The notes beneath the pieces are model-generated. The model was given only the letters and a program-made list of their open reading frames with translations. It searched no databases and had not been told where the DNA came from. The position numbers were made by a program, and so were the translations under genes. 64,000 nt of DNA, from assembly GCA_964504385.1 (NCBI GenBank), contig CAZDEF010000001.1, positions 294 to 64,293 on the forward strand, written 5' to 3'. Below, piece by piece: positions 6,794 through 19,063 of the stretch. This DNA is from an uncultured Oscillospiraceae bacterium. GTDB lineage: Bacteria; Bacillota; Clostridia; Christensenellales; Aristaeellaceae. Each line of letters starts with the position of its first letter. The first letter of the stretch is position 1.

Positions 6794-7666
6794 TTATCGA
6801 TTCACAGCGCTCATTTTCTCAGCAATTTTGGTGGCAAAGGGGGTACCAGCCACACCGCCCAGTCCTGTCTCGCGCAAGGACACATCCATCTTGTCGCCCA
6901 CATCGCGCATGGCCAAAATCACTTCATCCGGCGGCACAGCGGAACGGATCCCCGCCAGCGCCATGTCCGCGCTGCACATGGCCACCATCGCGCCGGCCGC
7001 ATTGCGCTTCACGCAAGGCACCTCCACCAGACCGGCGATGGGATCACACACCAGACCGAGCAGGCTCTTGAGGGCCATTGCCGCCGCATGGCACACAGCC
7101 TGCGCGCTGCCTCCGGCCAGATAGCACACTGCAGCAGCAGCCATGGCGCTGGCCGTGCCGATCTCGTACTGGCAGCCGCCCGCCGCCCCCGCGATGGATG
7201 CCTTGGTGGCGATGACCTGTCCGATGGCGCCCGCCACATACAGTGCGCGCACGATCGCATCATCGTCCAGTTTTTCGCGCTGCTGATACGGCAGCAGCAC
7301 TGCCGGCATCACCCCGCAGCTGCCCGCTGTGGGCGCAGCGACGATGCACTTCATGCAGGCGTTGTTCTCGCCCATCTCCAAGGCCTGTGAGATCACCTGA
7401 CCGATATACGGGCCGCAAATCGTACGCCCCTGTTCCACATAGGCGCGCATTTTTCCGCCGTCACCGCCCACCATGCCGCTGGCCGAACGCAGCGAGGCGC
7501 AATAGCCCGCAGCAGAGTGCTGCATGGCGGCAAACATCTCGCACATCCGTTCATAGGATTCCTCGGGCGTTACGCCCCGCTCCACGCAGTCGCTCTCGCG
7601 CACCACTTCAAACATATCACGCTGTTCGCATGCGCTTTCCAGCGCCGCAAGCGATTCAATGGCCAT
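6794..7666 (-). CDS. sdaAA: L-serine dehydratase, iron-sulfur dependent, alpha subunit
   Basis: 290 aa. CIVAAPTAGSCGVMPAVLL and AGGCQYEIGTASAMAAA match conserved alpha-chain motifs. Confidence 0.92.
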   Translation of the reverse strand: MAIESLAALESACEQRDMFEVVRESDCVERGVTPEESYERMCEMFAAMQHSAAGYCASLRSASGMVGGDGGKMRAYVEQGRTICGPYIGQVISQALEMGENNACMKCIVAAPTAGSCGVMPAVLLPYQQREKLDDDAIVRALYVAGAIGQVIATKASIAGAAGGCQYEIGTASAMAAAAVCYLAGGSAQAVCHAAAMALKSLLGLVCDPIAGLVEVPCVKRNAAGAMVAMCSADMALAGIRSAVPPDEVILAMRDVGDKMDVSLRETGLGGVAGTPFATKIAEKMSAVNR

Positions 7667-7683
7667 CTTTCTGCCTCCTTTTA

Positions 7684-8349
7684 TCAGCGGTCGCCCGAAA
7701 TAGCCGTCACGCCGATGATTCCTTCGATCTCTTTCATCCGCTGCAATGTATCCGCAGAAACGCTCTTGTCGGTTTCAATGATCATCACAGCGTTTCCGCC
7801 GGGATAGTCGCGGTGGATCTGCAGGGATGCGATGTTTACCTTTTCCTGCGCCAGCATGCCGGCCACACTTCCCACCATGCCGGGCTGATCGACATTCTGC
7901 ACGATCAGCGTAGGCAGATCGCCCGCAAACTTGACGTGCAGGCCATTGAGCTCCATCACCATGATGCGCCCGCCGCCCAGCGAGCAGGCTTCCACGCTCA
8001 GCTGCTTGCCGCTCTTGCCTTCCAGCTCCAGTCGGGCCGTATTGGGATGCTCGGCATTCAGCTTGGAATACTCAAACGCAAACGCCAGTCCATTCCCCTC
8101 TGCCCAGCGGAAACTGTCCGCGATCCGCTCGTCATTGGGCTTATAGCCCAGCAGACCGGCAATCAAAGCACGATCCGTGCCGTGGCCGCGGCCAGTCGCT
8201 GCAAACGAACCATACAGCGTGATCTTGGCTTTGCGCGGCGTGCCCTCTCCCAGCAAGCGCCGCGCCGTCAGTCCAATGCGGGCTGCGCCTGCGGTGTGCG
8301 AACTGCTGGGGCCGACCATGACAGGGCCCAGAATATCAAACAGGTTCAT
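7684..8349 (-). CDS. sdaAB: L-serine dehydratase, iron-sulfur dependent, beta subunit
   Basis: MNLFDILGPVMVGPSSSHTAGAARIG at the N-terminus plus a C-terminal ACT-like region. The ATG at 8349 overlaps the upstream stop (ATGA). Confidence 0.92.
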   Translation of the reverse strand: MNLFDILGPVMVGPSSSHTAGAARIGLTARRLLGEGTPRKAKITLYGSFAATGRGHGTDRALIAGLLGYKPNDERIADSFRWAEGNGLAFAFEYSKLNAEHPNTARLELEGKSGKQLSVEACSLGGGRIMVMELNGLHVKFAGDLPTLIVQNVDQPGMVGSVAGMLAQEKVNIASLQIHRDYPGGNAVMIIETDKSVSADTLQRMKEIEGIIGVTAISGDR

Positions 8350-9443
8350 TTGTATTCCCCTTTCTTTTTCGCCTTCCAGGCAAGGAACAGACAAAGCAGC
8401 GCACCCAGCAGGGCAGCTGCGGCATACCACGGCGATTGATACATGGTGTAGTACACGTCCGTCTCGCCCGGTTGTGTCAGCGGCACCGGGTCAAACGGCA
8501 GGCCGTTGTCCTCGGCCAATCCGCGCACATTCAGCAAATAGATCACCGGCACATTCCGCGCCGCGTATTCAAACACCAGTCCACGATCCTCATCCTGCGG
8601 TATGCGTGGCGGATCGGTCACAAGGCCGTTGGGAAAGGTGAGCGTATACGGGCTGGTGCCCATATTTGCGCTTGCGCCGCCCACATTCACAAAGCAGTCT
8701 ACTTCTTCACCGTAAAGCACCAGCCTTCGCTGAACCGATGCAGGGATGTCCGGTTCGTCAATCATCAGCAGTCCATCCATTTCGGCCATGGCGAAAATCA
8801 TTTCGCGCGAGCCGGGAAACAGAATGCTCACGCCTTGATCAAAGTCGCCCCCCGGCGATACGGCGATCAGTTCATAATCGATCGTTCCGGCTTTTCGTGC
8901 CACATCCAGTACGCGCACCACTGTCAGCTCCAGCCGCGTGCAGCCATACATGGAACTGCCGTAGGAAGCGATGACTCTCACGTTGAGATCCATCTCATTG
9001 GCCGCAGCAACAGCCGCCAGACACAATCCCGGAAACGAACCGCTCATGCCGCAGCACACGGTGTCTCCACTCTTCAGCCCGGCTTCCTGATAGTATTTCA
9101 CCATCAGTGCGGCAAAATCCGGCTGCAGCGCCGTCCGCTTGGCTTCCAGCAGACCCAGCGAGCTGGTCAGTTCCGTCCATTCAGGGCCGATCAGCCCCGT
9201 TTTGTTCAGGTCATCCTTCTCCATGGGAATGCCCTGTTCGGTCACATAATCCAGTAGCGCCTGCTCCGCGCGCGCCATGCGCTGCGCCGCCGCCAGCTGC
9301 ACGGCGGCGTAGGGCAATTCCGTGCGCATTTGCGTGCAGAGCGTAAGTGCAAAGCCGCACATCGAAACAGCCAAGGCAGCGCATAGCCACCGCAGGCAGT
9401 GCCCGTTCAACCTTCCGGCAAGGGGCAACGCTCCTTTTCTCAT
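8346..9443 (-). CDS. Poly-gamma-glutamate system protein (third component found with PgsB/PgsC when PgsA is absent)
   Basis: 365 aa with an N-terminal TM (LRWLCAALAVSMCGFALTLC) and a C-terminal TM (WYAAAALLGALLCLFLAW). Start ATG 9443 overlaps the pgsC stop (ATGA). The family assignment is from memory of the PgsB/C-associated family and needs an HMM check. Confidence 0.65.
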   Translation of the reverse strand: MRKGALPLAGRLNGHCLRWLCAALAVSMCGFALTLCTQMRTELPYAAVQLAAAQRMARAEQALLDYVTEQGIPMEKDDLNKTGLIGPEWTELTSSLGLLEAKRTALQPDFAALMVKYYQEAGLKSGDTVCCGMSGSFPGLCLAAVAAANEMDLNVRVIASYGSSMYGCTRLELTVVRVLDVARKAGTIDYELIAVSPGGDFDQGVSILFPGSREMIFAMAEMDGLLMIDEPDIPASVQRRLVLYGEEVDCFVNVGGASANMGTSPYTLTFPNGLVTDPPRIPQDEDRGLVFEYAARNVPVIYLLNVRGLAEDNGLPFDPVPLTQPGETDVYYTMYQSPWYAAAALLGALLCLFLAWKAKKKGEYK

Positions 9444-9874
9444 AGCGCGCTCACCGCCATCAGCAGCAGTCGCACCAGCGCCGAGGAGAGCAGCACCCCC
9501 AGCAGCGTGCGTGGCACGCCCTGCTTGTACATGTCGTTGGCAATCAAACCGGGCACTACATGGCCAATGATGCGAATGTCCTGCGGGATCAGCGCGATCC
9601 CCAGCAGGAACTGCTCTATCACCCATGCACAGATCAGGCTCAGCACAATGGTGAGCATAAAGCGCCGTCTGCCGTACAGGATAACGAAACGGGCAACCAG
9701 CCGCGTGAGCAGATAAACAATGACCGCCAGCACCAATGTAGTCACGATGCGCAGCGGCTGCTCCAGATACAGGCACAGATAGCCGGAAGATACCATGCCG
9801 CCGCACAGCAGTCCGAACGCCTCATAGATTCCAAAACTCAGCATCACACTGAGCGCAATGGCAATGTCATACAT
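9440..9874 (-). CDS. pgsC: Poly-gamma-glutamate biosynthesis membrane protein PgsC/CapC
   Basis: 144 aa, four hydrophobic helices. MYDIAIALSVMLSFGIYEAFGLLCGGMVSSGYL and VVPGLIANDMYKQG are CapC-like. Confidence 0.85.
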   Translation of the reverse strand: MYDIAIALSVMLSFGIYEAFGLLCGGMVSSGYLCLYLEQPLRIVTTLVLAVIVYLLTRLVARFVILYGRRRFMLTIVLSLICAWVIEQFLLGIALIPQDIRIIGHVVPGLIANDMYKQGVPRTLLGVLLSSALVRLLLMAVSAL

Positions 9875-10961
9875 TCTTCTGCGCTTCCTTTATCAGTTCT
9901 TCCAGGAACCGTCTTCCTTCGTCCTTGATATTGCCTGCGCACAGCACCTGCGCATGGCGCTTGATCCACTGGCGCGGCTGCTGCACCGGCGCAGTCTGTA
10001 TGCCGGTGATCCGCTTCAGGTAGTGCGCGCACCATTCCCGGCTATCGCCGATCACACCGATTTCACAGGGCGGCTGCTTGCAGTCGCGCAGCACCTGCGC
10101 AAAGGCCTCCACGCGATAGGAGCGGTCGCGGCGATGATTGTACAGCAGCGCATATTCGCCAGACTGCGCACATTCCGCCAGCACCTCGCGGAAGCTGACA
10201 GGGTCGTTGGCAGCAAAGGCGTTGCGCATGCGGCATCCGTCAACCTCCAACTGTTTATACATTCCAATATCCGGACTGGTGTTCAGCACGCCACGGCGAA
10301 ACGTATCCTCGCCGATGCCCAGCTGCTTGCACAGCGCCGCCACCAGCGCCGCGTTCGCCGGATGCACCGGGAACGGGCAGGCGGCAAATGCGCTTACATC
10401 CGCCGTTTCTTCCGGGATCACCAGTTTATGCGTGAACGCGCCGAAACGCTCATCCTGCGCGATCACGGTACATTCGTCTGTAATGGACTGAGCAAGCACC
10501 GCAACGGTTTCTTCCTCAGTTTTGCCGATCTCCTCAATATGATCGACATACGCATTGGTCATCAGCACATAGTCCGGCCTGATGAGTTGATGCGCGATTA
10601 GAAATTGGTTTTCCGGGCGCTGCGCCATGCATTCCACCACAATGGCCTGCGCCTTTCCGCTGGCAGCCAGCCGCACGAAGGGCAGCTGCTCCAGCATGCT
10701 TACAGGGCGATGCTCCCTGCGGTATTCTTCCTCCCGGCCATTTGGCAGGATCCTTCGGGCTTCTGATCCCGTGGTTTTGGCATAGGTTCGAATTCCGGCT
10801 TCCTTCAGCACTGCCGCCGTCATGCGGGTCACGGTGGTTTTTCCGCGTGTGCCGTTCACCAGAATGCGCAGTGGAATTCTGGCCAGCATACGCTGATGCA
10901 GCCGGTTTTCTGCCAGTCCTGCCAGCAGCAGCACGCCCAGCGCGGCAATCACAACAAACAT
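9867..10961 (-). CDS. pgsB: Poly-gamma-glutamate synthase PgsB/CapB (Mur-ligase-like amide ligase)
   Basis: N-terminal TM, then P-loop VNGTRGKTTVTRM and ECMA..PENQ motifs. Start ATG 10961 is preceded by GCAGGAGG (SD). An alternative upstream ATG exists at 10994. Confidence 0.85.
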   Translation of the reverse strand: MFVVIAALGVLLLAGLAENRLHQRMLARIPLRILVNGTRGKTTVTRMTAAVLKEAGIRTYAKTTGSEARRILPNGREEEYRREHRPVSMLEQLPFVRLAASGKAQAIVVECMAQRPENQFLIAHQLIRPDYVLMTNAYVDHIEEIGKTEEETVAVLAQSITDECTVIAQDERFGAFTHKLVIPEETADVSAFAACPFPVHPANAALVAALCKQLGIGEDTFRRGVLNTSPDIGMYKQLEVDGCRMRNAFAANDPVSFREVLAECAQSGEYALLYNHRRDRSYRVEAFAQVLRDCKQPPCEIGVIGDSREWCAHYLKRITGIQTAPVQQPRQWIKRHAQVLCAGNIKDEGRRFLEELIKEAQKNV

Positions 10962-11001: not shown

Positions 11002-11031
11002 GGTCCAAGCGCTCCGCAGAGCGCTTGGACC
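11002..11031 (-). terminator. Hairpin (weak terminator or attenuator) between the C69 peptidase gene and pgsB
   Basis: ggtccaagcgct (11002-11013) pairs with agcgcttggacc (11020-11031). The downstream tract ttcccgtttgaag is T-poor, and only about 35 nt remain before the pgsB ATG, so read-through is likely. Confidence 0.4.
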
Positions 11032-11053: not shown

Positions 11054-12670
11054 TTACTGAGCAGCCGCTTCCTCAACAGGCTTGTTGGGGGCGTTGTCCA
11101 GAATATCGCTCCACCACTGGGGATACTTGGCTTCGTTCATGTCAACGCGGTTGAACATGTACTTGGCATACAGCTTGTCGCCCAGCTCGGTCCAGTACTG
11201 GTGCCATTCGTTGGCGTTGTTGCAGGCATATTCGGTGATCAGCTTCACAGCAGCGTCGCTGTCGCCGGCTTCCACCAGCGCGGCAGCCGCAGCCTGAATG
11301 CTGGCAACCTCGGCATACTGCTCATCCATCTTGGGATCGCGGGCAGCATAGATGTCCTGAATAGCGCTCTGGTAGTTCTGAGAGGCGGTCTGCTGCACAT
11401 ACTGAGAGATCCACCAAGCAGAATTACGATCGAAGGTGCCATAACGGGTGCCGGTAGACAGAATCTCGGGCAGCTCGGTCATGGAAGCCCACAGCGGGAT
11501 GCTGTAGGAGGAGTCAGAAGCGCCCCAGCCGATCCACACCAGGCAGCGGGCTTCCTTGGGCAGGTTGGCGTTGACGTTGCAGATGGTGTGATAGGTAGCG
11601 CGGTACAGGTTGATGGTGCGCTCCTTGTGCTTGTCGCTCAGCACATTGCCGAAGGGACCGGCTTCGGGAGTCAGAGAAACATCGTACTCAGTGCCCTGAT
11701 AGTAGTCGGAGTTCAGCGCGCGAACATCAGCAACGCTCAGCTTCTTCTCGGGGATGACATACAGGGGATAGTAGTCCGCGTTGGGATCCAGGTTCAGGCT
11801 GGGCGCCACCAGATCAAACGCGCGCCACTCGCGGCGGCTGGAGTAAGCATCCACATAGGGGCAGTAGGTCTTGGCGGGGTTGAAGTCGCCATCCACAGCC
11901 GCATCGTACAGGCCGTTTTCTTCAGCGAAGGAAACCAGATTCTCGGACCACATGTAGTTCTCGGGATCGTTGAAGTCGATATGGTCGATGCGGCAGCGGT
12001 TCGCAGCCACAAAGAAGGCATTGTCGGGGATCTTCACAGCGCACCACAGATCCAGGCCGTAGCACTCCATGATCCACACTTCGTTACCGTCGCAGATGTT
12101 GAGCACTTCAGCGGAAGTGTTCCAGCCGTAGTTTTCAACCAGATCCGCCACGATCTCCACAGCCTCGCGGGCGGTGGTGGCGCGCTCCAGCGCAATGTGC
12201 TGCGCCTGGTAACAGTCGATGATGCCGTTGTTGCTATCATAGAACAGCTCAGCCAGCTTCTGGGTGCGCTCATCGCTGGGGATGAACCAGCAGGTGCACT
12301 CGCCCATAGCCACGCCGTGCTCGTTGATGATGGAGTAGTTGCCATGCAGGTACTGGTAGGTATCCTCGGTTTGGGGCATTTCGCCAAGCACCATGCCGCC
12401 GCCGTAATCCTTGGTGTTGGGATAGTTGGACCAGTCGCCATAGAGGTTGCCATTCATGACGATGTCACGGGTAACGCCCTCGCCGCCTTTCATGGCGGGG
12501 ATGATCCACAGACGGGAATCGTCGCCGGTGGAGTCGCAGGTGTGGGTAACAATGGTGGAACCATCGGTGGTGGCATCCTTACCAATGCCATAGATGGTGC
12601 AGGCCATCGCACTGGACATCATCATGACCAGCGCCAGAGCCATCGCAACCGCGCTCAGGAACTTCTTCAT
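11054..12670 (-). CDS. Secreted C69-family cysteine (di)peptidase, paralog 1
   Basis: 538 aa. Signal peptide ending SSAMA, directly followed by CTIYGIGKDATTDGSTIVTHTCDS, the Ntn-type C69 N-terminus. Confidence 0.85.
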   Translation of the reverse strand: MKKFLSAVAMALALVMMMSSAMACTIYGIGKDATTDGSTIVTHTCDSTGDDSRLWIIPAMKGGEGVTRDIVMNGNLYGDWSNYPNTKDYGGGMVLGEMPQTEDTYQYLHGNYSIINEHGVAMGECTCWFIPSDERTQKLAELFYDSNNGIIDCYQAQHIALERATTAREAVEIVADLVENYGWNTSAEVLNICDGNEVWIMECYGLDLWCAVKIPDNAFFVAANRCRIDHIDFNDPENYMWSENLVSFAEENGLYDAAVDGDFNPAKTYCPYVDAYSSRREWRAFDLVAPSLNLDPNADYYPLYVIPEKKLSVADVRALNSDYYQGTEYDVSLTPEAGPFGNVLSDKHKERTINLYRATYHTICNVNANLPKEARCLVWIGWGASDSSYSIPLWASMTELPEILSTGTRYGTFDRNSAWWISQYVQQTASQNYQSAIQDIYAARDPKMDEQYAEVASIQAAAAALVEAGDSDAAVKLITEYACNNANEWHQYWTELGDKLYAKYMFNRVDMNEAKYPQWWSDILDNAPNKPVEEAAAQ

Positions 12671-12822
12671 TGGGTGGACTCTCCTTTCGTACTTTGGGAA
12701 TGGGGATCATATCATGAATTCTGCTGCAAGGCCGCCGTATACACGCAGCGTCTCCTGCAGCAAAATACATTCCTTTGGGCAGCGCACGGATGCACACGCA
12801 CCCGTGCGCTCAAGGAGACACT

Positions 12823-14433
12823 TTACTCAGCTTCCACAGGCTTGTTGGCGGCGTTGTCCAGAATGTCGCTCCACCACTGGGGATACTTGGCTTCATTCAT
12901 GTCAACGCGTTCAAACATGTACTTGGCGTACAGCTTGTCGCCCATTTCCAGCCAGCTGCCATACCATTCTTCTGCATTGCTGCAGGCATAGTTGGTCAGC
13001 AGTTCAATGGCGGCCTCGCTGTTGCCAGCCTCCACCAGAGCGGTGGCTGCAGCCTGCACGCTGGCAACGGTTTCGTACTGTTCTGCCAGCTTGGGATCGC
13101 GCAGAGCGTGGATCTCTTCAATGGCGCTGTCGTAATTCTGCGTGGCGGTCTGCTGCACATAGGAAGCGATCCACCAGCCGGAATTGCGGTCGAAGGAACC
13201 ATAACGGGTGCCCACGGAGTACAGCTCCGGCAGACGGGTCATGGAAGCCCACAGCGGCACGATGAAAGAGGAATCCGGAGCGCCGAAGCCATGCCACACC
13301 AAAGAACGAACTTCCTTGGGCAGGTTGGCGTTGATGTTGGCGATCATCAGATAGGCGGTGCGGTACAGGTTGATGGTACGCTCATGATGCTTATCGCTGA
13401 GCGGATTGCCGAAGGGACCGGCTTCAGGAGTGAGCGACACGTCATACTCCGTGCCCTGATAATAGTCGCTGTTGATCTGGCGGATATCCTCCACGCTCAG
13501 CTTCTTTTCAGGGATCACATACAGCGGGTAGTAGTCTGCGTCGGGATCCAGATTCAGGCTGGGAACCACCAGACTCAGCGCGCGCCACTCGCGGCGGTTG
13601 CAGTAGGGGTCGCTGTAGGGGGAGTAGATCTTAGCGGGTGCAAAGGGTTCGCCGCTTTCCTCGCTCCACAGCCCGTTTTCGATCGCGAAGGACTTGAGGT
13701 TGGGCGAACACATGTAGTTCTCGGTGTCCTCAAAGTCGAACTCCGTGATACGGCAACGGTTGGCCGCTACGAAGAATGCGTTGTCCGGCAGTCGCACTGC
13801 GCACCAGAGGTCCATACCGTACACTTCCAGGATCCACACTTCGTTGCCATCGCAGATGTTCATCACTTCTGCCGAATTGGCCCAGTGGTATTCCTCCACC
13901 AGCTCGCCGATGATCTGCACGGCTTCACGCGCGGTCTTCGCGCGCTCCATGGCAATGTGCTGCGCATGGTAGCAGTCGATGATGCCGTCGTTCATCAGGG
14001 TGAGCAGCTCGTACAGCTTCATGGTGTGGTCGTCCTGCGGGATGTACCACGCGGTGGATTCGCCCATGGCCACGCCATACTCGTTGATGAAGGAATAGTT
14101 GCTGTGAATGTACTGGTTGGTATCCTCAGGCTGAGGCATCTCACCAAGCACCATGCCGCTGCCATAATCCTTGGTATTGGGGTAGTCGCCCCAGTCGCCA
14201 TAGGAATGGCCGTTCATGACGATGTCACGCGTCACACCTTCGCCGCCTTCCATGCGCGGAATGATCCACGTACGGAAGTCATCGCTGGTGGTATCGTCGG
14301 TATGCGTGACGATGGTGGAGCCGTCAACCGTCGCGTCTTTGCCAACACCCATAATGGTGCAGGCCATGGCGCTCTGTGTGAACAGAGCGATGATCATCAT
14401 AACAGTCAGGAAGAAGTGCCATGTTTTGCGCAT
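12823..14433 (-). CDS. Secreted C69-family cysteine (di)peptidase, paralog 2
   Basis: 536 aa. Signal peptide ending QSAMA, followed by CTIMGVGKDATVDGSTIVTHTDD. Long runs are identical to paralog 1, for example ADYYPLYVIPEKKLSV and NSDYYQGTEYDVSLTPEAGPFGN. Confidence 0.85.
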   Translation of the reverse strand: MRKTWHFFLTVMMIIALFTQSAMACTIMGVGKDATVDGSTIVTHTDDTTSDDFRTWIIPRMEGGEGVTRDIVMNGHSYGDWGDYPNTKDYGSGMVLGEMPQPEDTNQYIHSNYSFINEYGVAMGESTAWYIPQDDHTMKLYELLTLMNDGIIDCYHAQHIAMERAKTAREAVQIIGELVEEYHWANSAEVMNICDGNEVWILEVYGMDLWCAVRLPDNAFFVAANRCRITEFDFEDTENYMCSPNLKSFAIENGLWSEESGEPFAPAKIYSPYSDPYCNRREWRALSLVVPSLNLDPDADYYPLYVIPEKKLSVEDIRQINSDYYQGTEYDVSLTPEAGPFGNPLSDKHHERTINLYRTAYLMIANINANLPKEVRSLVWHGFGAPDSSFIVPLWASMTRLPELYSVGTRYGSFDRNSGWWIASYVQQTATQNYDSAIEEIHALRDPKLAEQYETVASVQAAATALVEAGNSEAAIELLTNYACSNAEEWYGSWLEMGDKLYAKYMFERVDMNEAKYPQWWSDILDNAANKPVEAE

Positions 14434-14466
14434 CGTTCTGTCATCTCCTTATTCAATAGGGAAGGG

Positions 14467-15642
14467 TTAGATCTCAAATACCAGGTCAGGATCCGCCGTT
14501 TCAGGATTCTGCAGGAAGTAGCCGCAGTCCTTGTCCATCAGGTCATTGTAGCCGGGCCAAGTGGCAACGATGTCCTTGCCTTCAAACATCAGCTGCATGT
14601 CGTTGGCCCAGGACAGCACTTCCTTGGCGCCTTCGAGGTGACGGCCAACGCGGTACTTCATAGGCGCGCCGAACTCGGAATCGTAATCCACATAGGTCAG
14701 GCCGTGATCGGAAGCGATCTGCAGGATCTCGTCCTTGCCTTCGGTCTGCAGGGTAGCCGTCATGGGGCCGACGATCCAGTCGGTGAAGGGCTGGGGAGTC
14801 TCCATCAGGATCGCCAGTGTGTCGGAGAAGTCGCCCCACTCACGGTGCGACAGGCCGCGCAGGTTCTTCGGAGACTGCTCGCACTTCATATAGAAGCGAT
14901 CGGCAGACAGGCTCATGGCAGCCATCATCGCCATGTCCAGCGCGCGGTCGTGCGCCACGTAGGTTTCCACCACGGGGTACATGACGGCGGCTTCGTGGCA
15001 GTCGATAGCGATGTCCACGTCCTCATTGCGGATGATCTCCATGATGCCGTAGCACACGCGCTCAATCAGCGAGCCGTTGGGTCGGCCGGGATAGCAGCGG
15101 TTGACATTGCGGATATCCTGATAGGTCAGAGCCAGATTGGACGGATAGTGCATGTAGGTGAAGGGATCCGGCCAGGAATCCAGCGGATTGGCCCAGCGGT
15201 CGCCGTTCTTGTACTGCACGGTGCCCCATTCGGTTTCGATCTCGTAATAACGGGGATAGGCGTTGCCCAGCATACCGGTGGTGGTAGCGCTGCGGTTGGC
15301 CTGCGGGATGATGATGACGCGGCCCTTTTCCACCTGAATGTTCTCAAGCAGCACATAGGCGGACAGGCTGGCGGCAGGCTCGTAGGGGTGGGTACCGCCC
15401 ACATAGAGCAGCGTGCCGCCCTCAACGCCGGAGTCAAAGATGAACACAGGGGTATCGCCGAAGGTGCCTTCCAGACTGGGGACCCACTCGCTGAGCATGT
15501 GCTGCTCAGTCAGCGCAGAGGAGGCAACCACGGTTTCGGGGGTGTGACGGTAGGTGTAGAACTCGATGCCGGCCAGCGTGGCCATCACCAGTGCGCACGC
15601 CAGCGCCAGCAGCTTGGCCAGAAGACTCTTGCTCATTTTCAT
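14467..15642 (-). CDS. AstE/AspA-family (M14-like zinc) deacylase/carboxypeptidase with N-terminal signal/anchor
   Basis: GGTHPYEPAA (HxxE zinc motif), NRCYPGRPNGSLIERVCYGI (family NRxFPG...G..ER motif) and IAIDCHEA (second His). N-terminal hydrophobic segment LLAKLLALACALVMATLAG. SD GGGAGGAAG lies upstream of ATG 15642. Confidence 0.75.
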   Translation of the reverse strand: MKMSKSLLAKLLALACALVMATLAGIEFYTYRHTPETVVASSALTEQHMLSEWVPSLEGTFGDTPVFIFDSGVEGGTLLYVGGTHPYEPAASLSAYVLLENIQVEKGRVIIIPQANRSATTTGMLGNAYPRYYEIETEWGTVQYKNGDRWANPLDSWPDPFTYMHYPSNLALTYQDIRNVNRCYPGRPNGSLIERVCYGIMEIIRNEDVDIAIDCHEAAVMYPVVETYVAHDRALDMAMMAAMSLSADRFYMKCEQSPKNLRGLSHREWGDFSDTLAILMETPQPFTDWIVGPMTATLQTEGKDEILQIASDHGLTYVDYDSEFGAPMKYRVGRHLEGAKEVLSWANDMQLMFEGKDIVATWPGYNDLMDKDCGYFLQNPETADPDLVFEI

Positions 15643-15658: not shown

Positions 15659-15832
15659 TTACTTGATCTGCAGGATTCGCAGGAGGAACGGGATGATGCA
15701 GTAGGCGTAAACAATGTCGTTCACAATGCCCTTGTTCTTCTCACGCTTGAACAGATGCTTAACGAGGAAGAAGCAGGAAACCGCTGCGAAGATCATGTAG
15801 ATCCAATAAATCACATTTTGCAGAAATACCAT
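15659..15832 (-). CDS. 57-aa two-TM membrane micro-protein (absent from the ORF track)
   Basis: Hand translation: MVFLQNVIYWIYMIFAAVSCFFLVKHLFKREKNKGIVNDIVYAYCIIPFLLRILQIK. SD AAAGGAGG sits 6 nt before the ATG. The ORF fits exactly between the permease stop (15-nt gap) and the deacylase start (16-nt gap). Confidence 0.6.
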   Translation of the reverse strand: MVFLQNVIYWIYMIFAAVSCFFLVKHLFKREKNKGIVNDIVYAYCIIPFLLRILQIK

Positions 15833-15847
15833 GCCAATCCTCCTTTC

Positions 15848-17152
15848 TTAAATCAGGAAAGTGAACTTGTTGGGCCAGATGAGCATCGCTAGCGCGATGA
15901 GACCCAGCATCAAGCAGGGGATGATGATCGCCTTGAGGAACTCCGTGTACTTGCCTTCGTAGCCGACCGCTTCAATGGCCAGACGGCCCGTGATGCGGGA
16001 GGGGGGCAGGCAGTCGCCGATGGGGAACATCAGCGCCAGCGCGACCGCGGCGATCTTGGGCTCAAAGCCCATGGAGTTGAACAGGAAGATCAGCGGAGCG
16101 CCAAACACCACGGCGCTGCCGTAGTTGAGCGCACCCTGCAGGAAGGGAGCCACAAACAGCACGGTCACATAGATCCATACCACGGGCAGGGTGATGAAGG
16201 TGATGCCGATGAGGCCCTTCACGCCGGTGGCGGACATGGCGTTCTGCAGCATGCCAACGCTCAGCACGGTGGCGATCAGGGGGAAGATCTGCTCGAAGGT
16301 CTCGTCGATGATCTTCCAGTAATCCTTCAGGCTCATCTTCTTGGGGTTGCACAGCACAGCCACGATGGCGGACAGGATGAACATCAGCGGCAGGCCGATG
16401 ATCGGGATAGCATGAGCGGCGTAGTTGGAAGCGAGGAACAGCGCAACCAGCACCACCAGCGGCAGCAGGATGCGCCACCAGGTCATGTTGGCAGGAGCCT
16501 CAGGCAGACTGGCCAGCACTTCTTCCTTGCTCTGGCGCTTGGTGCCCCAGCCAAGGAATACGATGGTGAAGATACCCACGATGATGATCGGCACCATCAG
16601 CGGCAGACCGAAGCCCACGTAGGGGATGTCGGAACCGGAGGCGATCATCATGGCCCACAGGTTGACGGGCGGCGCCGCAGCGCTCAGGATGGCGAACATG
16701 AACACGAAGGCGGCGGTGCGCTTCTTGTTCAAGCCCATCGCGCCGGCGATGGTGGAGACCATGGTGCCCAGCACGAAGATGGAGATGCTGCCCGCGCCGG
16801 TCAGCGCGCCGGGGATGAGCATGAACGCGCCCATGCAGGCCAGCAGGATCCACTTGTTGTTCACACGGTTTACCAGACCGCGGGTCACGGTATCGATCGC
16901 GCCCGTCTGGGAGTAGATGCTCACGAAGATGGACGCGGTAATAAAGATCAATGCAGTATCAAGGTTTACAAACAGGCCTTCCACCAGCACGCGGGGGAAG
17001 GAATCGGTCCAGCCGAAACCACAGCCGAACAGCACGCCGACCACAGCGGTGACCGCCAGAGAGATCTCGGGCGATTTCAGGAAGATGCTCGCCAGGACGA
17101 ACGCTGCCACCATGGCAACTAGGACAACGATTGTACTCATGTAGACAGACAC
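15848..17152 (-). CDS. DctM-like (TRAP large-subunit / ion-transporter superfamily) permease
   Basis: 434 aa, polytopic. Two repeat-hairpin signatures, GLNKKRTAAFVFMFAILSAAAPPVNLW and MGFEPKIAAVALALMFPIGDCLPPSRITG, parallel the DctM ...IGPIIPPS... and ...GLITPPVG... motifs. GTG start 17152 is preceded by GAAGGAGGG. Confidence 0.7.
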   Translation of the reverse strand: MSVYMSTIVVLVAMVAAFVLASIFLKSPEISLAVTAVVGVLFGCGFGWTDSFPRVLVEGLFVNLDTALIFITASIFVSIYSQTGAIDTVTRGLVNRVNNKWILLACMGAFMLIPGALTGAGSISIFVLGTMVSTIAGAMGLNKKRTAAFVFMFAILSAAAPPVNLWAMMIASGSDIPYVGFGLPLMVPIIIVGIFTIVFLGWGTKRQSKEEVLASLPEAPANMTWWRILLPLVVLVALFLASNYAAHAIPIIGLPLMFILSAIVAVLCNPKKMSLKDYWKIIDETFEQIFPLIATVLSVGMLQNAMSATGVKGLIGITFITLPVVWIYVTVLFVAPFLQGALNYGSAVVFGAPLIFLFNSMGFEPKIAAVALALMFPIGDCLPPSRITGRLAIEAVGYEGKYTEFLKAIIIPCLMLGLIALAMLIWPNKFTFLI

Positions 17153-17186
17153 GAGTTTTGTCCCTCCTTCATTCTAGTACATTTTC

Positions 17187-17228
17187 GGGGAAAAAGCAGA
17201 GGGGAGCACAATGCGCTTGTCTCCCCTC
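17187..17228 (-). terminator. Intra-operon attenuator/terminator after the secreted-protein gene
   Basis: Minus strand reads gaggggag (17228-17221), a loop, ctcccctc (17206-17199), then tgctttttcccc. This is the arrangement typical after solute-binding-protein genes. Confidence 0.5.
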
Positions 17229-17240
17229 CACTCCAATGGC

Positions 17241-17840
17241 TTACTTCACGAAAGCCTGCTTGATCAGCTCAACGAAGTCCATGGAGCTGTCCAGCAGCGT
17301 CAGGGGAGTGCCGTTGGCAGTCTTGAAAGCGTCATAACGGCCGTCGGTGTTCACGTCGTTGAGCACGACCATCCAGCTGGCGCCGGGGCACACAGCGTCG
17401 ATGCAGCGTTCGTTGGCGTTGGTGGACACGTCGGAACGCTTGTCCTTCTCCAGCATCACGGCCACAACAGGCACGTTGGCTTCCTTGGCAGCAGCCACCA
17501 CTTCGTTCACACGAGCGATCTCCTGATCGATGGTGATGCCGGTAGCGCCCAGGCCCTTATCGGTGGAGCCGATGATGATGATGATCGCGGAGTAGTCGCG
17601 AGCGGTCACATCGGCAGCGTAGGGAACGTCAACGTAGAAGAAGTCCTGATCCTCCACCAGAGTGCCGGCGCGGGTGGCCAGCAGACGGCCCATCTTGCCG
17701 CCAGGGCCCTGGCCGGCATTGGTGATCATGAAAGGCGTGCCGTAGTTCATCACAGCATCGCCGCTGATGGCAGCGGAAGCGCACATGGGGATGGTCATCA
17801 GAGCGCACAGAACCAGAACGAGACTGAGAATTCTTTTCAT
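17241..17840 (-). CDS. Secreted ~170-aa (mature) alpha/beta protein of unknown function, candidate binding component
   Basis: Signal peptide MKRILSLVLVLCALMTIPMCASA. Alternating beta-alpha pattern (SAIIIIIGSTDKGLGATG..., ANVPVVAVMLEKD...). SD AAAGGAAG. First gene of the array. Confidence 0.65.
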   Translation of the reverse strand: MKRILSLVLVLCALMTIPMCASAAISGDAVMNYGTPFMITNAGQGPGGKMGRLLATRAGTLVEDQDFFYVDVPYAADVTARDYSAIIIIIGSTDKGLGATGITIDQEIARVNEVVAAAKEANVPVVAVMLEKDKRSDVSTNANERCIDAVCPGASWMVVLNDVNTDGRYDAFKTANGTPLTLLDSSMDFVELIKQAFVK

Positions 17841-18160
17841 GTTGGTAACTTCCTTTCTGTTGTTTACGGTCTCCTTTTGCCTGCAACTAAAAAGTGTGAA
17901 AGCCATCAGAGTCTCCCTTACATGCATGTAGCCGCGTCCCCTGCAACAGCACAAAACGTCTTTTGAATTCCGTTTTCTCCTGCATGTACATTCGATCCTT
18001 CTGTTTCCTCCCCTTCAATTGTGTAGCATCCGTTCCAGTCATAGACAGGAATCGAGGTTTTGAGATACCGTTTTGTTTATTTTACTGGTTTTTCTACCAA
18101 ATGTATAGTATCTTTATTTTTGTCCAGTATAAGAAAAACGAATACTCGTTTGTCGCCGTC

Positions 18161-18190
18161 TTGTTCAAGACAACAATGATATGCTATAAT
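18161..18190 (+). promoter_or_regulatory. Putative promoter of the LysR gene
   Basis: TTGTTC (18161-18166), an 18-nt spacer, then TGcTATAAT extended -10 (TATAAT at 18185-18190). Confidence 0.4.
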
Positions 18191-18223
18191 ATGACATATC
18201 TCATCTGTTAGAGGTGACAGCAA

Positions 18224-19063
18224 ATGATCGACAGCAGCCTTTGGAATGCGCTGGTTACCTTTCATCAGTGCGGCACGCTCAGCGCCGCAGCCGAAAAACT
18301 GTATGTATCTCAGCCTTCCTTGTCCTCAGCTATGAAAAGGCTGGAAAAAGAACTGGGCGTTTCCCTGTTCGAACGCAGCAAAAACCGGCTGGTGCTCAAC
18401 GAGGTAGGGCTTGAGGCTGTAGCGCTCGCTGAGAAGCACATTCAGGCCGAGAAGGAAATCGTGATCCATCTGCAGGAGATGTTCCGCCGGCTGAACGCTA
18501 TTACGGTGGCTTCCTATGTGAGCGGGCTACGGAAAATGCTGGTGGATCGCTTGAGCAATCTGTACCCGGATAAAGAGATCATTGCGGAGCATCTTTCCAG
18601 CGCGCTGCTCCCGCGCGGCCTATTGGAGGGACGTTTTGACTATGTTATAACCGAATATCCGATCGATGAGCCGGATGTGCAGTGTGTGCACTACCTGACC
18701 GACCGCATGCTGGTGCGCCTGCCGAAGGATGACCCTCTGGCCGACCGTGAAAGCGTGACGATTCACGATCTGCAGGGCGGCAAGCTGCTGGTGTGGACGC
18801 AAAGCGGTTTCTGGGCTTCGCACATCCGCAAAAAGTTCAGCAGCAATCAGTTGGTGTTTGTTCACGATGAGCAGGAATACTACGATCTGATCCAAGCATT
18901 TGACATGCGCTCCTTCACGTTGGAGTCCGTCGTTGCCAACCGTGAGCAGCAGGAGCGTTACCGTTTTGTGACGCTTGCAGAAGAAGACATGAGGATCGTT
19001 TTCTATATCTGCTGTTTGCAGCAGAACGCGCATCTGCTGCCCAGCCTTTTGCCGCGTATGTGA
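18224..19063 (+). CDS. LysR-family transcriptional regulator
   Basis: 279 aa. wHTH LVTFHQCGTLSAAAEKLYVSQPSLSSAMKRLEKELGVSLFER. Divergent from the transporter/peptidase array. Confidence 0.9.
   Translation: MIDSSLWNALVTFHQCGTLSAAAEKLYVSQPSLSSAMKRLEKELGVSLFERSKNRLVLNEVGLEAVALAEKHIQAEKEIVIHLQEMFRRLNAITVASYVSGLRKMLVDRLSNLYPDKEIIAEHLSSALLPRGLLEGRFDYVITEYPIDEPDVQCVHYLTDRMLVRLPKDDPLADRESVTIHDLQGGKLLVWTQSGFWASHIRKKFSSNQLVFVHDEQEYYDLIQAFDMRSFTLESVVANREQQERYRFVTLAEEDMRIVFYICCLQQNAHLLPSLLPRM

Follow-up and report, generated by a model that had tools for sequence, protein, structure and literature searches.

Enzyme families known to cut poly-gamma-glutamate are few, and the passages of one published account available here (PMC4497714) name PgdS, GGT/CapD, and PghP, the last being a phage zinc enzyme related to carboxypeptidase A. 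According to the same passages, the Bacillus polymer is degraded by secreted PgdS and by secreted GGT, which removes its end residues, and pgdS and capD sit with the synthase genes; the pairing of a synthase with secreted hydrolases, an N-terminal nucleophile (Ntn) hydrolase among them, is known from Bacillus (PMC4497714). Here, a gene cluster from an uncultured Oscillospiraceae bacterium is described (GenBank assembly GCA_964504385.1, contig CAZDEF010000001.1, positions 294 to 64,293 of the forward strand; this whole stretch of 64,000 nucleotides is called the window). It joins two exported C69-family hydrolases, C69a and C69b, and a membrane-anchored zinc hydrolase to the synthase genes PgsB and PgsC, to TIGR04332, a family named 'poly-gamma-glutamate system protein', and to a permease. 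It appears that the cluster probably makes a gamma-glutamyl polymer and recovers it, with the zinc hydrolase and the C69 enzymes as its presumed hydrolytic part.

The module is comprised of nine genes: DUF6305, an ion-transporter (IT) superfamily permease, a 57-residue membrane protein, the zinc hydrolase, C69 (one to three copies, depending on the locus), PgsB, PgsC, and TIGR04332. All genes of the cluster lie on the minus strand of the window and are transcribed in the order DUF6305, permease, 57-residue protein, zinc hydrolase, C69b, C69a, a hairpin, PgsB, PgsC, and TIGR04332, while a LysR regulator is divergent on the plus strand. The nine genes are as follows.

17241..17840, minus strand: exported DUF6305 protein, the first gene of the module, 200 residues (PF19823, E 3.5e-34)
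15848..17152, minus strand: IT-superfamily permease, 434 residues, weakly DctM-like (PF06808, 26.8 bits against a cut-off of 23.8; TIGR02123, E 3.9e-6)
15659..15832, minus strand: two-helix membrane protein of 57 residues with a strong ribosome-binding site (sequence reading and tblastn conservation)
14467..15642, minus strand: signal-anchored M14-superfamily zinc hydrolase, 391 residues, weakly AstE/AspA-like, catalytic domain predicted to be extracellular
12823..14433, minus strand: C69b, the upstream paralog, exported Cys-type Ntn hydrolase, 536 residues (PF03577, E 6.1e-69)
11054..12670, minus strand: C69a, the downstream paralog, exported Cys-type Ntn hydrolase, 538 residues (PF03577, E 6.8e-66)
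9867..10961, minus strand: PgsB-type amide ligase, start taken at the ATG after AGGAGG (TIGR04012, 223.8 bits against a cut-off of 222.7)
9440..9874, minus strand: PgsC (TIGR04011, 105.6 bits against a cut-off of 96.45; PF14102)
8346..9443, minus strand: TIGR04332 'poly-gamma-glutamate system protein', 365 residues, transmembrane helices at both ends (295.9 bits against a cut-off of 100)

The gaps between genes are 15-33 nucleotides (nt) from the permease through C69b, and larger after DUF6305 (88 nt), between C69b and C69a (152 nt), and ahead of PgsB (92 nt). PgsB, PgsC, and TIGR04332 are adjacent and all score above their family cut-offs, PgsB being borderline. In a protein atlas, the neighbours of TIGR04332 bear the same name, and the queries with DUF6305 and TIGR04332 returned same-name clusters only. 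The initial annotation of this DNA had treated three exported peptidases (the zinc hydrolase and the two C69 enzymes) as a unit; these genes are confirmed, but the framing was too narrow, and DUF6305, the 57-residue gene, and TIGR04332 had been missed as parts of the same module.

A scan anchored on the zinc hydrolase yielded 37 loci, in which the window proteins were then searched by tblastn. Their sources are Clostridia/Christensenellales, Spirochaetota, Synergistota, an Eggerthellaceae, a Flexilinea, and Atribacterota, and loci with the module span Bacillota, Spirochaetota, Synergistota, Actinomycetota, and Chloroflexota. One to three C69 copies lie directly downstream of the zinc hydrolase in 27/37 loci, and DUF6305 and the permease are present in most of the 37. 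PgsB, PgsC, and TIGR04332 occur on the same locus in 17 of the 27 C69 loci, the Eggerthellaceae one in a rearranged order. Some spirochaete and Fretibacterium loci are without adjacent PgsBC; TIGR04332 and PgsB were found elsewhere in the genome in 5/5 such genomes tested.

The association extends to whole genomes. In a class-level sample, TIGR04332 occurred in three genomes (3/200), and exactly these were matched by the zinc hydrolase profile (3/201). In a phylum-level sample of 401 genomes, which are not independent because of kinship although the positives span many families, TIGR04332 was above its cut-off in 28. The zinc hydrolase profile matched strongly (E<=1e-100) in 27 genomes, all within these 28; ten more matches near 1e-11 cover profile positions 50-117 only and belong to other proteins. 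A profile of the C69 clade gave strong matches (E<=1e-100 and 340 bits or more) in 18 genomes, every one of them TIGR04332-positive, and in 0/373 others, while four weaker matches (about 1e-70) fall in TIGR04332-negative genomes. The genome of the window itself (88% complete) has these two C69 genes only. It had been proposed from adjacency that the peptidases form an extracytoplasmic degradation line supplying the permease; the genomic data show a genuine tie to PgsBC that goes well beyond adjacency, and the gamma-glutamyl substrate is the part that is inferred.

Linkage to a synthase could also mean polymer maturation and not nutrition, the hydrolases releasing, sizing, or anchoring the nascent polymer in the manner of PgdS and CapD, and the permease importing glutamate for synthesis. 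In Bacillus, pgdS lies directly after the pgs operon with a proposed role in chain release, and capD, a GGT-family Ntn hydrolase gene of the cap operon, serves to attach the polymer to the wall, as far as the passages of PMC4497714 go; an Ntn hydrolase gene lies directly ahead of PgsB in the window, too. However, the hydrolase-permease module also occurs kilobases or whole contigs away from PgsBC, and the C69 copy number ranges from 0 to 3, which would be odd for an obligatory step. The hydrolases are always tied to the permease, and this constant tie suggests the uptake of small products. A role in maturation is therefore considered distinctly unlikely, and synthesis with recovery is preferred.

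The nature of the Ntn partner points in the same direction. GGT (PF01019, E 1e-152 to 1e-177) adjoins the module in 6/6 C69-less loci with enough flanking sequence (L030, L032, L033, L034, L037, and L043), five loci being truncated too near the zinc hydrolase, on one or both sides, to be scored, and neither the 27 C69 loci nor the window gave a GGT match with tblastn. Likewise, the TIGR04332-positive genomes of the phylum sample without a clade C69 have GGT in 10/10 cases, in six of them within about 3 kb of the zinc hydrolase. Because the C69-less loci and genomes have GGT, the zinc hydrolase is always found together with an Ntn hydrolase, be it the Thr-type GGT or the Cys-type C69. In the genome of the window, at 88% completeness, neither GGT (PF01019) nor a PghP-like match was detected. 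Among the GGT-type clusters, that of L037 contains two Asp/Glu racemase genes (6908-7708 and 13684-14502), and that of L043 (4133-7713 and 16513-18540) an extra M14 peptidase, a CWB2 cell-wall-binding protein, and a histidine kinase/response regulator pair.

Both C69 enzymes appear to be built so that export exposes the catalytic Cys. The N-termini, read directly, are MKKFLSAVAMALALVMMMSSAMA followed by CTIYG in C69a and MRKTWHFFLTVMMIIALFTQSAMA followed by CTIMG in C69b. Each begins with MKK or MRK, continues with a hydrophobic core of 14-16 residues, and ends in S-A-M-A abutting Cys-Thr-Ile.

14362..14433, minus strand: C69b signal peptide, residues 1-24, n-h-c design with A-M-A at -3 to -1 (Cys25 codon at 14359-14361)
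12602..12670, minus strand: C69a signal peptide, residues 1-23, read from the sequence (Cys24 codon at 12599-12601)

C69a and C69b match PF03577 with 223.3 and 233.4 bits (cut-off 23) over profile positions 1-398 of 402. A24 and C25 of C69b align with PF03577 positions 1-2 and with the S-C-T of a solved C69 dipeptidase, 5iau (E 2.5e-35). SAMA immediately ahead of the catalytic Cys, as first reported for both paralogs, is thus borne out by direct reading and by these alignments. The NF033678 equivalog for C69 dipeptidases was not reached by either enzyme (216.9 and 227.3 bits against a cut-off of 250).

A signal peptide with Ala at -1 directly before Cys-Thr is found in 33/33 C69 copies of the 27 related loci. 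Among the 120 best database homologs, five are N-terminal fragments, and 114 of the 115 full-length proteins have Cys directly after a signal-like N-terminus. In homolog P0033 of C69a, Arg replaces the catalytic Cys after the signal peptide, and this copy may be inactive or wrongly sequenced. Of the 107 homologs scored by pattern, 103 have A and 3 have G at position -1; at position -3, A occurs 87 times, V 8 times, and L 7 times. A-x-A is the rule for signal peptidase I, and the predicted junction precedes the Cys in both window proteins, in keeping with the earlier suggestion that export itself would unmask the nucleophile. The idea is sound but ordinary, since secreted C69 enzymes are already known: SignalP-based prediction gave 43 secretory C69 peptidases in 41/43 Prevotella/Paraprevotella strains in the portion of PMC9045265 available. 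Exposure of Cys1 by signal peptidase follows directly from such enzymes. Nothing usable emerged from the literature on penicillin V acylase-type Ntn hydrolases when it was searched for signal-peptide unmasking.

Two other routes to the mature N-terminus can be considered. The first reads A-M-A-C as a lipobox, with the Cys diacylglyceryl-modified, the precursor cut by signal peptidase II, and the enzyme tethered to the membrane with its thiol blocked. Both window proteins, like 98/115 homologs, conform to a permissive lipoprotein pattern of the PROSITE style, so automatic annotation could label these C69 enzymes lipoproteins, and a few relatives carry L at -3 (such as L-L-A-C and L-G-A-C). On the other hand, the strict lipobox [LVI][ASTVI][GAS]C fits neither window protein and only 4/115 homologs, A far outnumbers L at -3 (87/107 against 7/107), and the Cys aligns with the catalytic nucleophile and is kept in 114/115 full-length homologs. 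A thioether lipid placed on the Cys thiol by Lgt chemistry would remove the nucleophile and abolish catalysis, which argues against the lipoprotein route without proving the point; this route is regarded as very improbable. In the second, the precursor would cut itself between Ala and Cys after export, without signal peptidase. Ntn hydrolases are generally self-processing precursors, as stated in the part of PMC9140057 at hand. However, small residues at -1 and -3 and an n-h-c design ending at the Cys are needed by signal peptidase I and not by self-cleavage, and no spacer peptide separates the signal peptide from the Cys, which makes autoproteolytic unmasking improbable. Cleavage by signal peptidase I is retained as the preferred route.

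With regard to the zinc hydrolase, the motifs HPYE (H85, E88), NRCYPG (N181, R182), and DCHE (D214, H216, E217) are present, and these seven residues together with E281 are invariant in 29 relatives. The zinc triad (HxxE...H) and the N-R pair align with 3cdx and 2qj8, and a phmmer search of the PDB gave AstE/AspA-family structures at E 6e-6 (3cdx) to 1.5e-4 with both motif blocks aligned. The PF24827 (AstE_AspA_cat) cut-off of 25 was not reached (19.9 bits), and there was no match to PF05908 (the PghP family) at E<=5. An AlphaFold model from 29 sequences (pLDDT, the per-residue model confidence, 92.3) has a long N-terminal helix, residues 5-33, ahead of the catalytic domain. Foldseek placed AstE/AspA structures and DoeB first (E about 1e-8, TM-score 0.3-0.4), followed by carboxypeptidase A4 and MpaA. 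A structural match to the M14 zinc carboxypeptidase fold was found well above background over the catalytic domain, and in a second structural alignment the AstE/AspA entries, which may still be kin, fell outside the best 50 matches by Z. As judged from the predicted model, the enzyme is an M14-superfamily carboxypeptidase-fold protein, for which AstE/AspA is the nearest sequence label only. Its earlier designation as an AstE/AspA-type zinc deacylase with its own anchor holds for the motifs and for the N-terminal helix, but not for family membership, the Pfam score being below the cut-off and the predicted fold being that of M14.

An invariant N-R pair is the carboxylate clamp of the M14 fold, and the M14 enzymes Csd4 and MpaA cleave a gamma-D-glutamyl bond. 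Such a clamp fits a substrate with a free carboxylate end, as at the C-terminal residue of a gamma-linked glutamate chain. Multiple zinc hydrolase paralogs occur in many TIGR04332-positive genomes, with at least four matches in each of G244, G327, G363, G426, G500, G504, and G529; in locus L029, TIGR04332 is followed by a further, divergent zinc hydrolase copy (17171-18283), and the zinc hydrolase gene of L033 (3450-4586) carries one or more in-frame stops and may be a pseudogene or an assembly error.

From the company of these genes we infer what the substrate is, which bond is cut, how the enzymes share the work, and in which direction transport runs. Briefly, both C69 precursors would cross the membrane in a Sec-dependent manner, and signal peptidase I would cut after A-x-A, leaving Cys as residue 1 with a free amine and thiol for Ntn catalysis and requiring no separate autoprocessing. 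The zinc hydrolase, tethered outside by its N-terminal helix, would cut gamma-glutamyl (N-acyl-glutamate-like) bonds at the free carboxylate end. The C69 enzymes, presumably soluble, would fill the role that GGT has in the sister cluster, splitting small gamma-glutamyl products or trimming end residues, and the two duplicates may differ in D/L or chain-length preference. The permease, assisted by DUF6305 and the small protein, would import the released glutamate. A bolder version, which we put forward tentatively and hold to be less probable than its negation, is that the exported C69 clade forms an unrecognised gamma-glutamyl hydrolase family, a Cys-type Ntn enzyme doing the job of GGT. It would act, together with PgsB-PgsC-TIGR04332 and an anchored M14-fold hydrolase, in an undescribed and widespread make-and-recycle system in which DUF6305 would be the exported part of a new three-component importer; the repeated tandem duplications would tune D/L or chain-length specificity.

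A number of observations weigh against a gamma-glutamyl recovery system. Several of them favour generic peptide scavenging, in which exported C69 enzymes of the usual alpha-dipeptidase kind and a zinc enzyme that is simply a carboxypeptidase or deacylase would together supply the permease with amino acids, and the tie to PgsBC would reflect a supply of glutamate to the synthase or co-transfer on an island and not cleavage of the polymer. Characterised C69 enzymes are alpha-dipeptidases, and the tested members cut alpha-dipeptides, Glu-Glu moderately, according to the sections of PMC8048996 available; secretory C69 enzymes are common in gut anaerobes in the portion of PMC9045265 cited above. 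The best PDB relative, 5iau, is named 'Dipeptidase', the module is separate from PgsBC in several spirochaete loci, and PgsB is only just above its family cut-off (223.8 against 222.7). A strong hairpin (11002-11031) lies between C69a and PgsB, so the two halves of the cluster may be transcribed apart. Moreover, GGT was found elsewhere in the genome in 4/5 other C69-type genomes, so C69 is no genome-wide replacement of GGT, and the alternation of C69 and GGT tracks one deep split in the zinc hydrolase tree, which amounts to about one evolutionary event and not many independent swaps. The permissive lipoprotein pattern discussed above and the possible presence of DNA in the RNA libraries behind the coverage reported below belong here as well. 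However, generic scavenging is opposed by a C69 clade found only in TIGR04332-positive genomes (18/28 against 0/373), by a gamma-glutamyl-specific enzyme family taking the C69 slot in the sister cluster, and by the position of both C69 enzymes under the NCBIfam equivalog cut-off (217 and 227 against 250 bits), and it is considered unlikely. Synthesis and recovery of a gamma-glutamyl polymer is still the reading preferred here.

The two C69 genes are a diverged tandem duplication, as had been noted initially; this is borne out by the C69 tree and by an amino acid identity of 73% (385/530), the overall nucleotide identity being 75%. In a maximum-likelihood tree of 34 C69 copies, C69b groups with copy 1 of the closest relative, L010 (support 100/100), and C69a with its copy 2 (100/98). 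Both pairs fall inside one clade (99/98), and the duplication is thus older than the split from L010. According to the same tree, the tandem C69 copies in L002, L005, L026, and L029 arose separately.

12829..12942, minus strand: 3' tract of C69b, apparently converted by C69a-type sequence (from discordant identities)
11069..11182, minus strand: matching 3' tract of C69a, the probable donor type

The last 114 aligned nt of the two genes differ at 9 positions (92% identity), against a mean of 28.6 per scanning segment (75%), so the description of the 3' ends as nearly identical was overstated. Gene conversion at the 3' ends, raised at the same time, is supported by discordant identities. In its main part, C69b is closest to its own ortholog (L010 copy 1), with 84% identity as compared with 73% to C69a and 70% to the C69a ortholog (L010 copy 2); in the 3' tract, the corresponding values are 76%, 91%, and 85%. 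A scan statistic for the tract gave P<0.0005 under free shuffling, a null that ignores protein constraint, and a weak synonymous excess was seen in it (29/35 identical codons against 230/353 elsewhere, Fisher P=0.038). Run-length tests for conversion were non-significant (longest identical run 29 nt, P=0.08; third-position run, P=0.49). Above all because of the discordant identities, and also because of the scan statistic and the weak synonymous excess, the pattern fits a conversion of the last 38 or so codons of C69b by C69a-type sequence.

On the transport side, the 57-residue gene was found by tblastn in 28/37 loci (47-98% identity) and also in L043, and it probably encodes a small transporter subunit. 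DUF6305 adjoins the permease in most loci and is a candidate extracytoplasmic receptor or accessory of it. The AlphaFold2 model of DUF6305 (pLDDT 89.6) has a generic Rossmann-like alpha/beta fold; an assignment of function from the fold was dropped, as the Foldseek matches were generic (best 7er6, E 6e-4, TM-score 0.40) and gave no clear PDB relative. In L010, the DUF6305 gene (7790-8389) contains one or more in-frame stops and may be a pseudogene or an assembly error.

Contigs at least 99% identical to the cluster were present in two RNA libraries from one animal-gut study. C69a is covered end to end by a contig of 1686 nt, and others cover most of C69b and of the zinc hydrolase as well as parts of the permease and DUF6305. 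One contig spans the junction of the zinc hydrolase and C69b (14282-14588); such contigs are no proof of a single transcript. Most of PgsB and parts of the permease and TIGR04332 are uncovered, and no conclusion is drawn from this. The C69a contigs of both libraries end at 11087, 33 nt short of the stop codon and within the tract common to C69b, possibly an assembly break at the repeat; no conclusion is drawn from this either, the two libraries being of one study.

Other features in and around the cluster are listed below.

18224..19063, plus strand: LysR-family regulator (PF00126 and PF03466)
12781..12810, minus strand: 9-bp perfect inverted repeat in the 152-nt gap between C69b and C69a, spotted by eye and absent from the list of the terminator scan
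11002..11031, no strand assigned: hairpin with a 13-bp stem in the gap between C69a and PgsB, a possible attenuator or terminator (listed by the scan on the plus strand; the T tail is weak on the minus strand)

Overall, the scans for promoters and terminators found about as many sites as expected by chance (5 against 4.7 and 7 against 7.0, respectively). A LysR copy, 61-63% identical, is likewise divergent and upstream of DUF6305 in three close relatives (L002, L004, and L005), and the divergent LysR is likely to be the local regulator of the cluster; GntR or two-component regulators replace it in other cluster versions. Two PF09587 (CapA/PGA_cap) genes lie outside the cluster on contigs C19 and C71 of the same genome, and their role is uncertain, the family being present in 7/14 control genomes as well.

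A literature search, thin on subscription journals, returned nothing on DUF6305, nothing on TIGR04332 or its name, and nothing linking C69 to gamma-glutamyl polymers. What is new here is the C69-type version of the module and the restriction of the C69 clade to TIGR04332 systems. If the proposal is true, the C69 clade and the M14-fold family would be two further enzyme families dedicated to the polymer, and a function would be available for proteins now named 'C69 family dipeptidase', DUF6305, and 'poly-gamma-glutamate system protein'. The module is present in gut and oral anaerobes from five phyla or more, and in animal-gut RNA libraries, which hints that gamma-glutamyl polymers are produced as well as recycled far beyond Bacillus.

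Compared with known systems, the window enzymes resemble their nearest described relatives only in part. The C69 dipeptidases (PepD/dipeptidase A; 5iau) share PF03577 over the whole domain and the aligned nucleophile Cys, whereas the window C69 enzymes are predicted to be exported and not cytoplasmic, are about 70 residues longer, fall under the NF033678 cut-off, and belong to a clade restricted to TIGR04332-positive genomes. AstE/AspA deacylases (3cdx, 3na6, 2qj8, and DoeB 6twm) are nearest to the zinc hydrolase by sequence and by Foldseek E-value, and HxxE and NRxxPG...DxH align; they are cytoplasmic, whereas the window enzyme is predicted to be extracytoplasmic and anchored, is below the Pfam cut-off, and reaches TM-scores of 0.3-0.4 only. 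In comparison with Csd4, MpaA, and PghP, which are M14 enzymes acting on gamma-glutamyl bonds, it is 13-16% identical, has an N-terminal membrane anchor, and shows no PF05908, and the same kind of substrate is a candidate only. In TRAP and TTT transporters, too, the genes for an exported protein and for two membrane subunits, a small one and a large one of the IT superfamily, occur together; however, the DctM match of the permease is marginal (26.8 against 23.8 bits), the 57-residue protein is without a DctQ match, and DUF6305 is no DctP or TctC.

At the level of the cluster, the GGT-type module (the six loci listed above) shares DUF6305, the IT-family permease, the M14-like zinc hydrolase, and often PgsB-PgsC-TIGR04332, but has GGT in the slot of C69, and its zinc hydrolases form a deep clade apart from that of the C69 type (37-41% identity). 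The Bacillus loci, pgsBCA(E) with pgdS (and an unlinked ggt) and capBCADE with CapD, have in common with the window a PgsB/PgsC synthase and secreted hydrolases, one of them an Ntn hydrolase (GGT/CapD). They differ in that TIGR04332 accompanies PgsBC in the window, CapA-type PF09587 matches being on other contigs; in that the Ntn hydrolase of the window is the Cys-type C69 and not the Thr-type GGT; in that its partner is an M14-fold enzyme and not the NlpC/P60 protein PgdS; and in that the cluster has a built-in permease, DUF6305, and the 57-residue protein.

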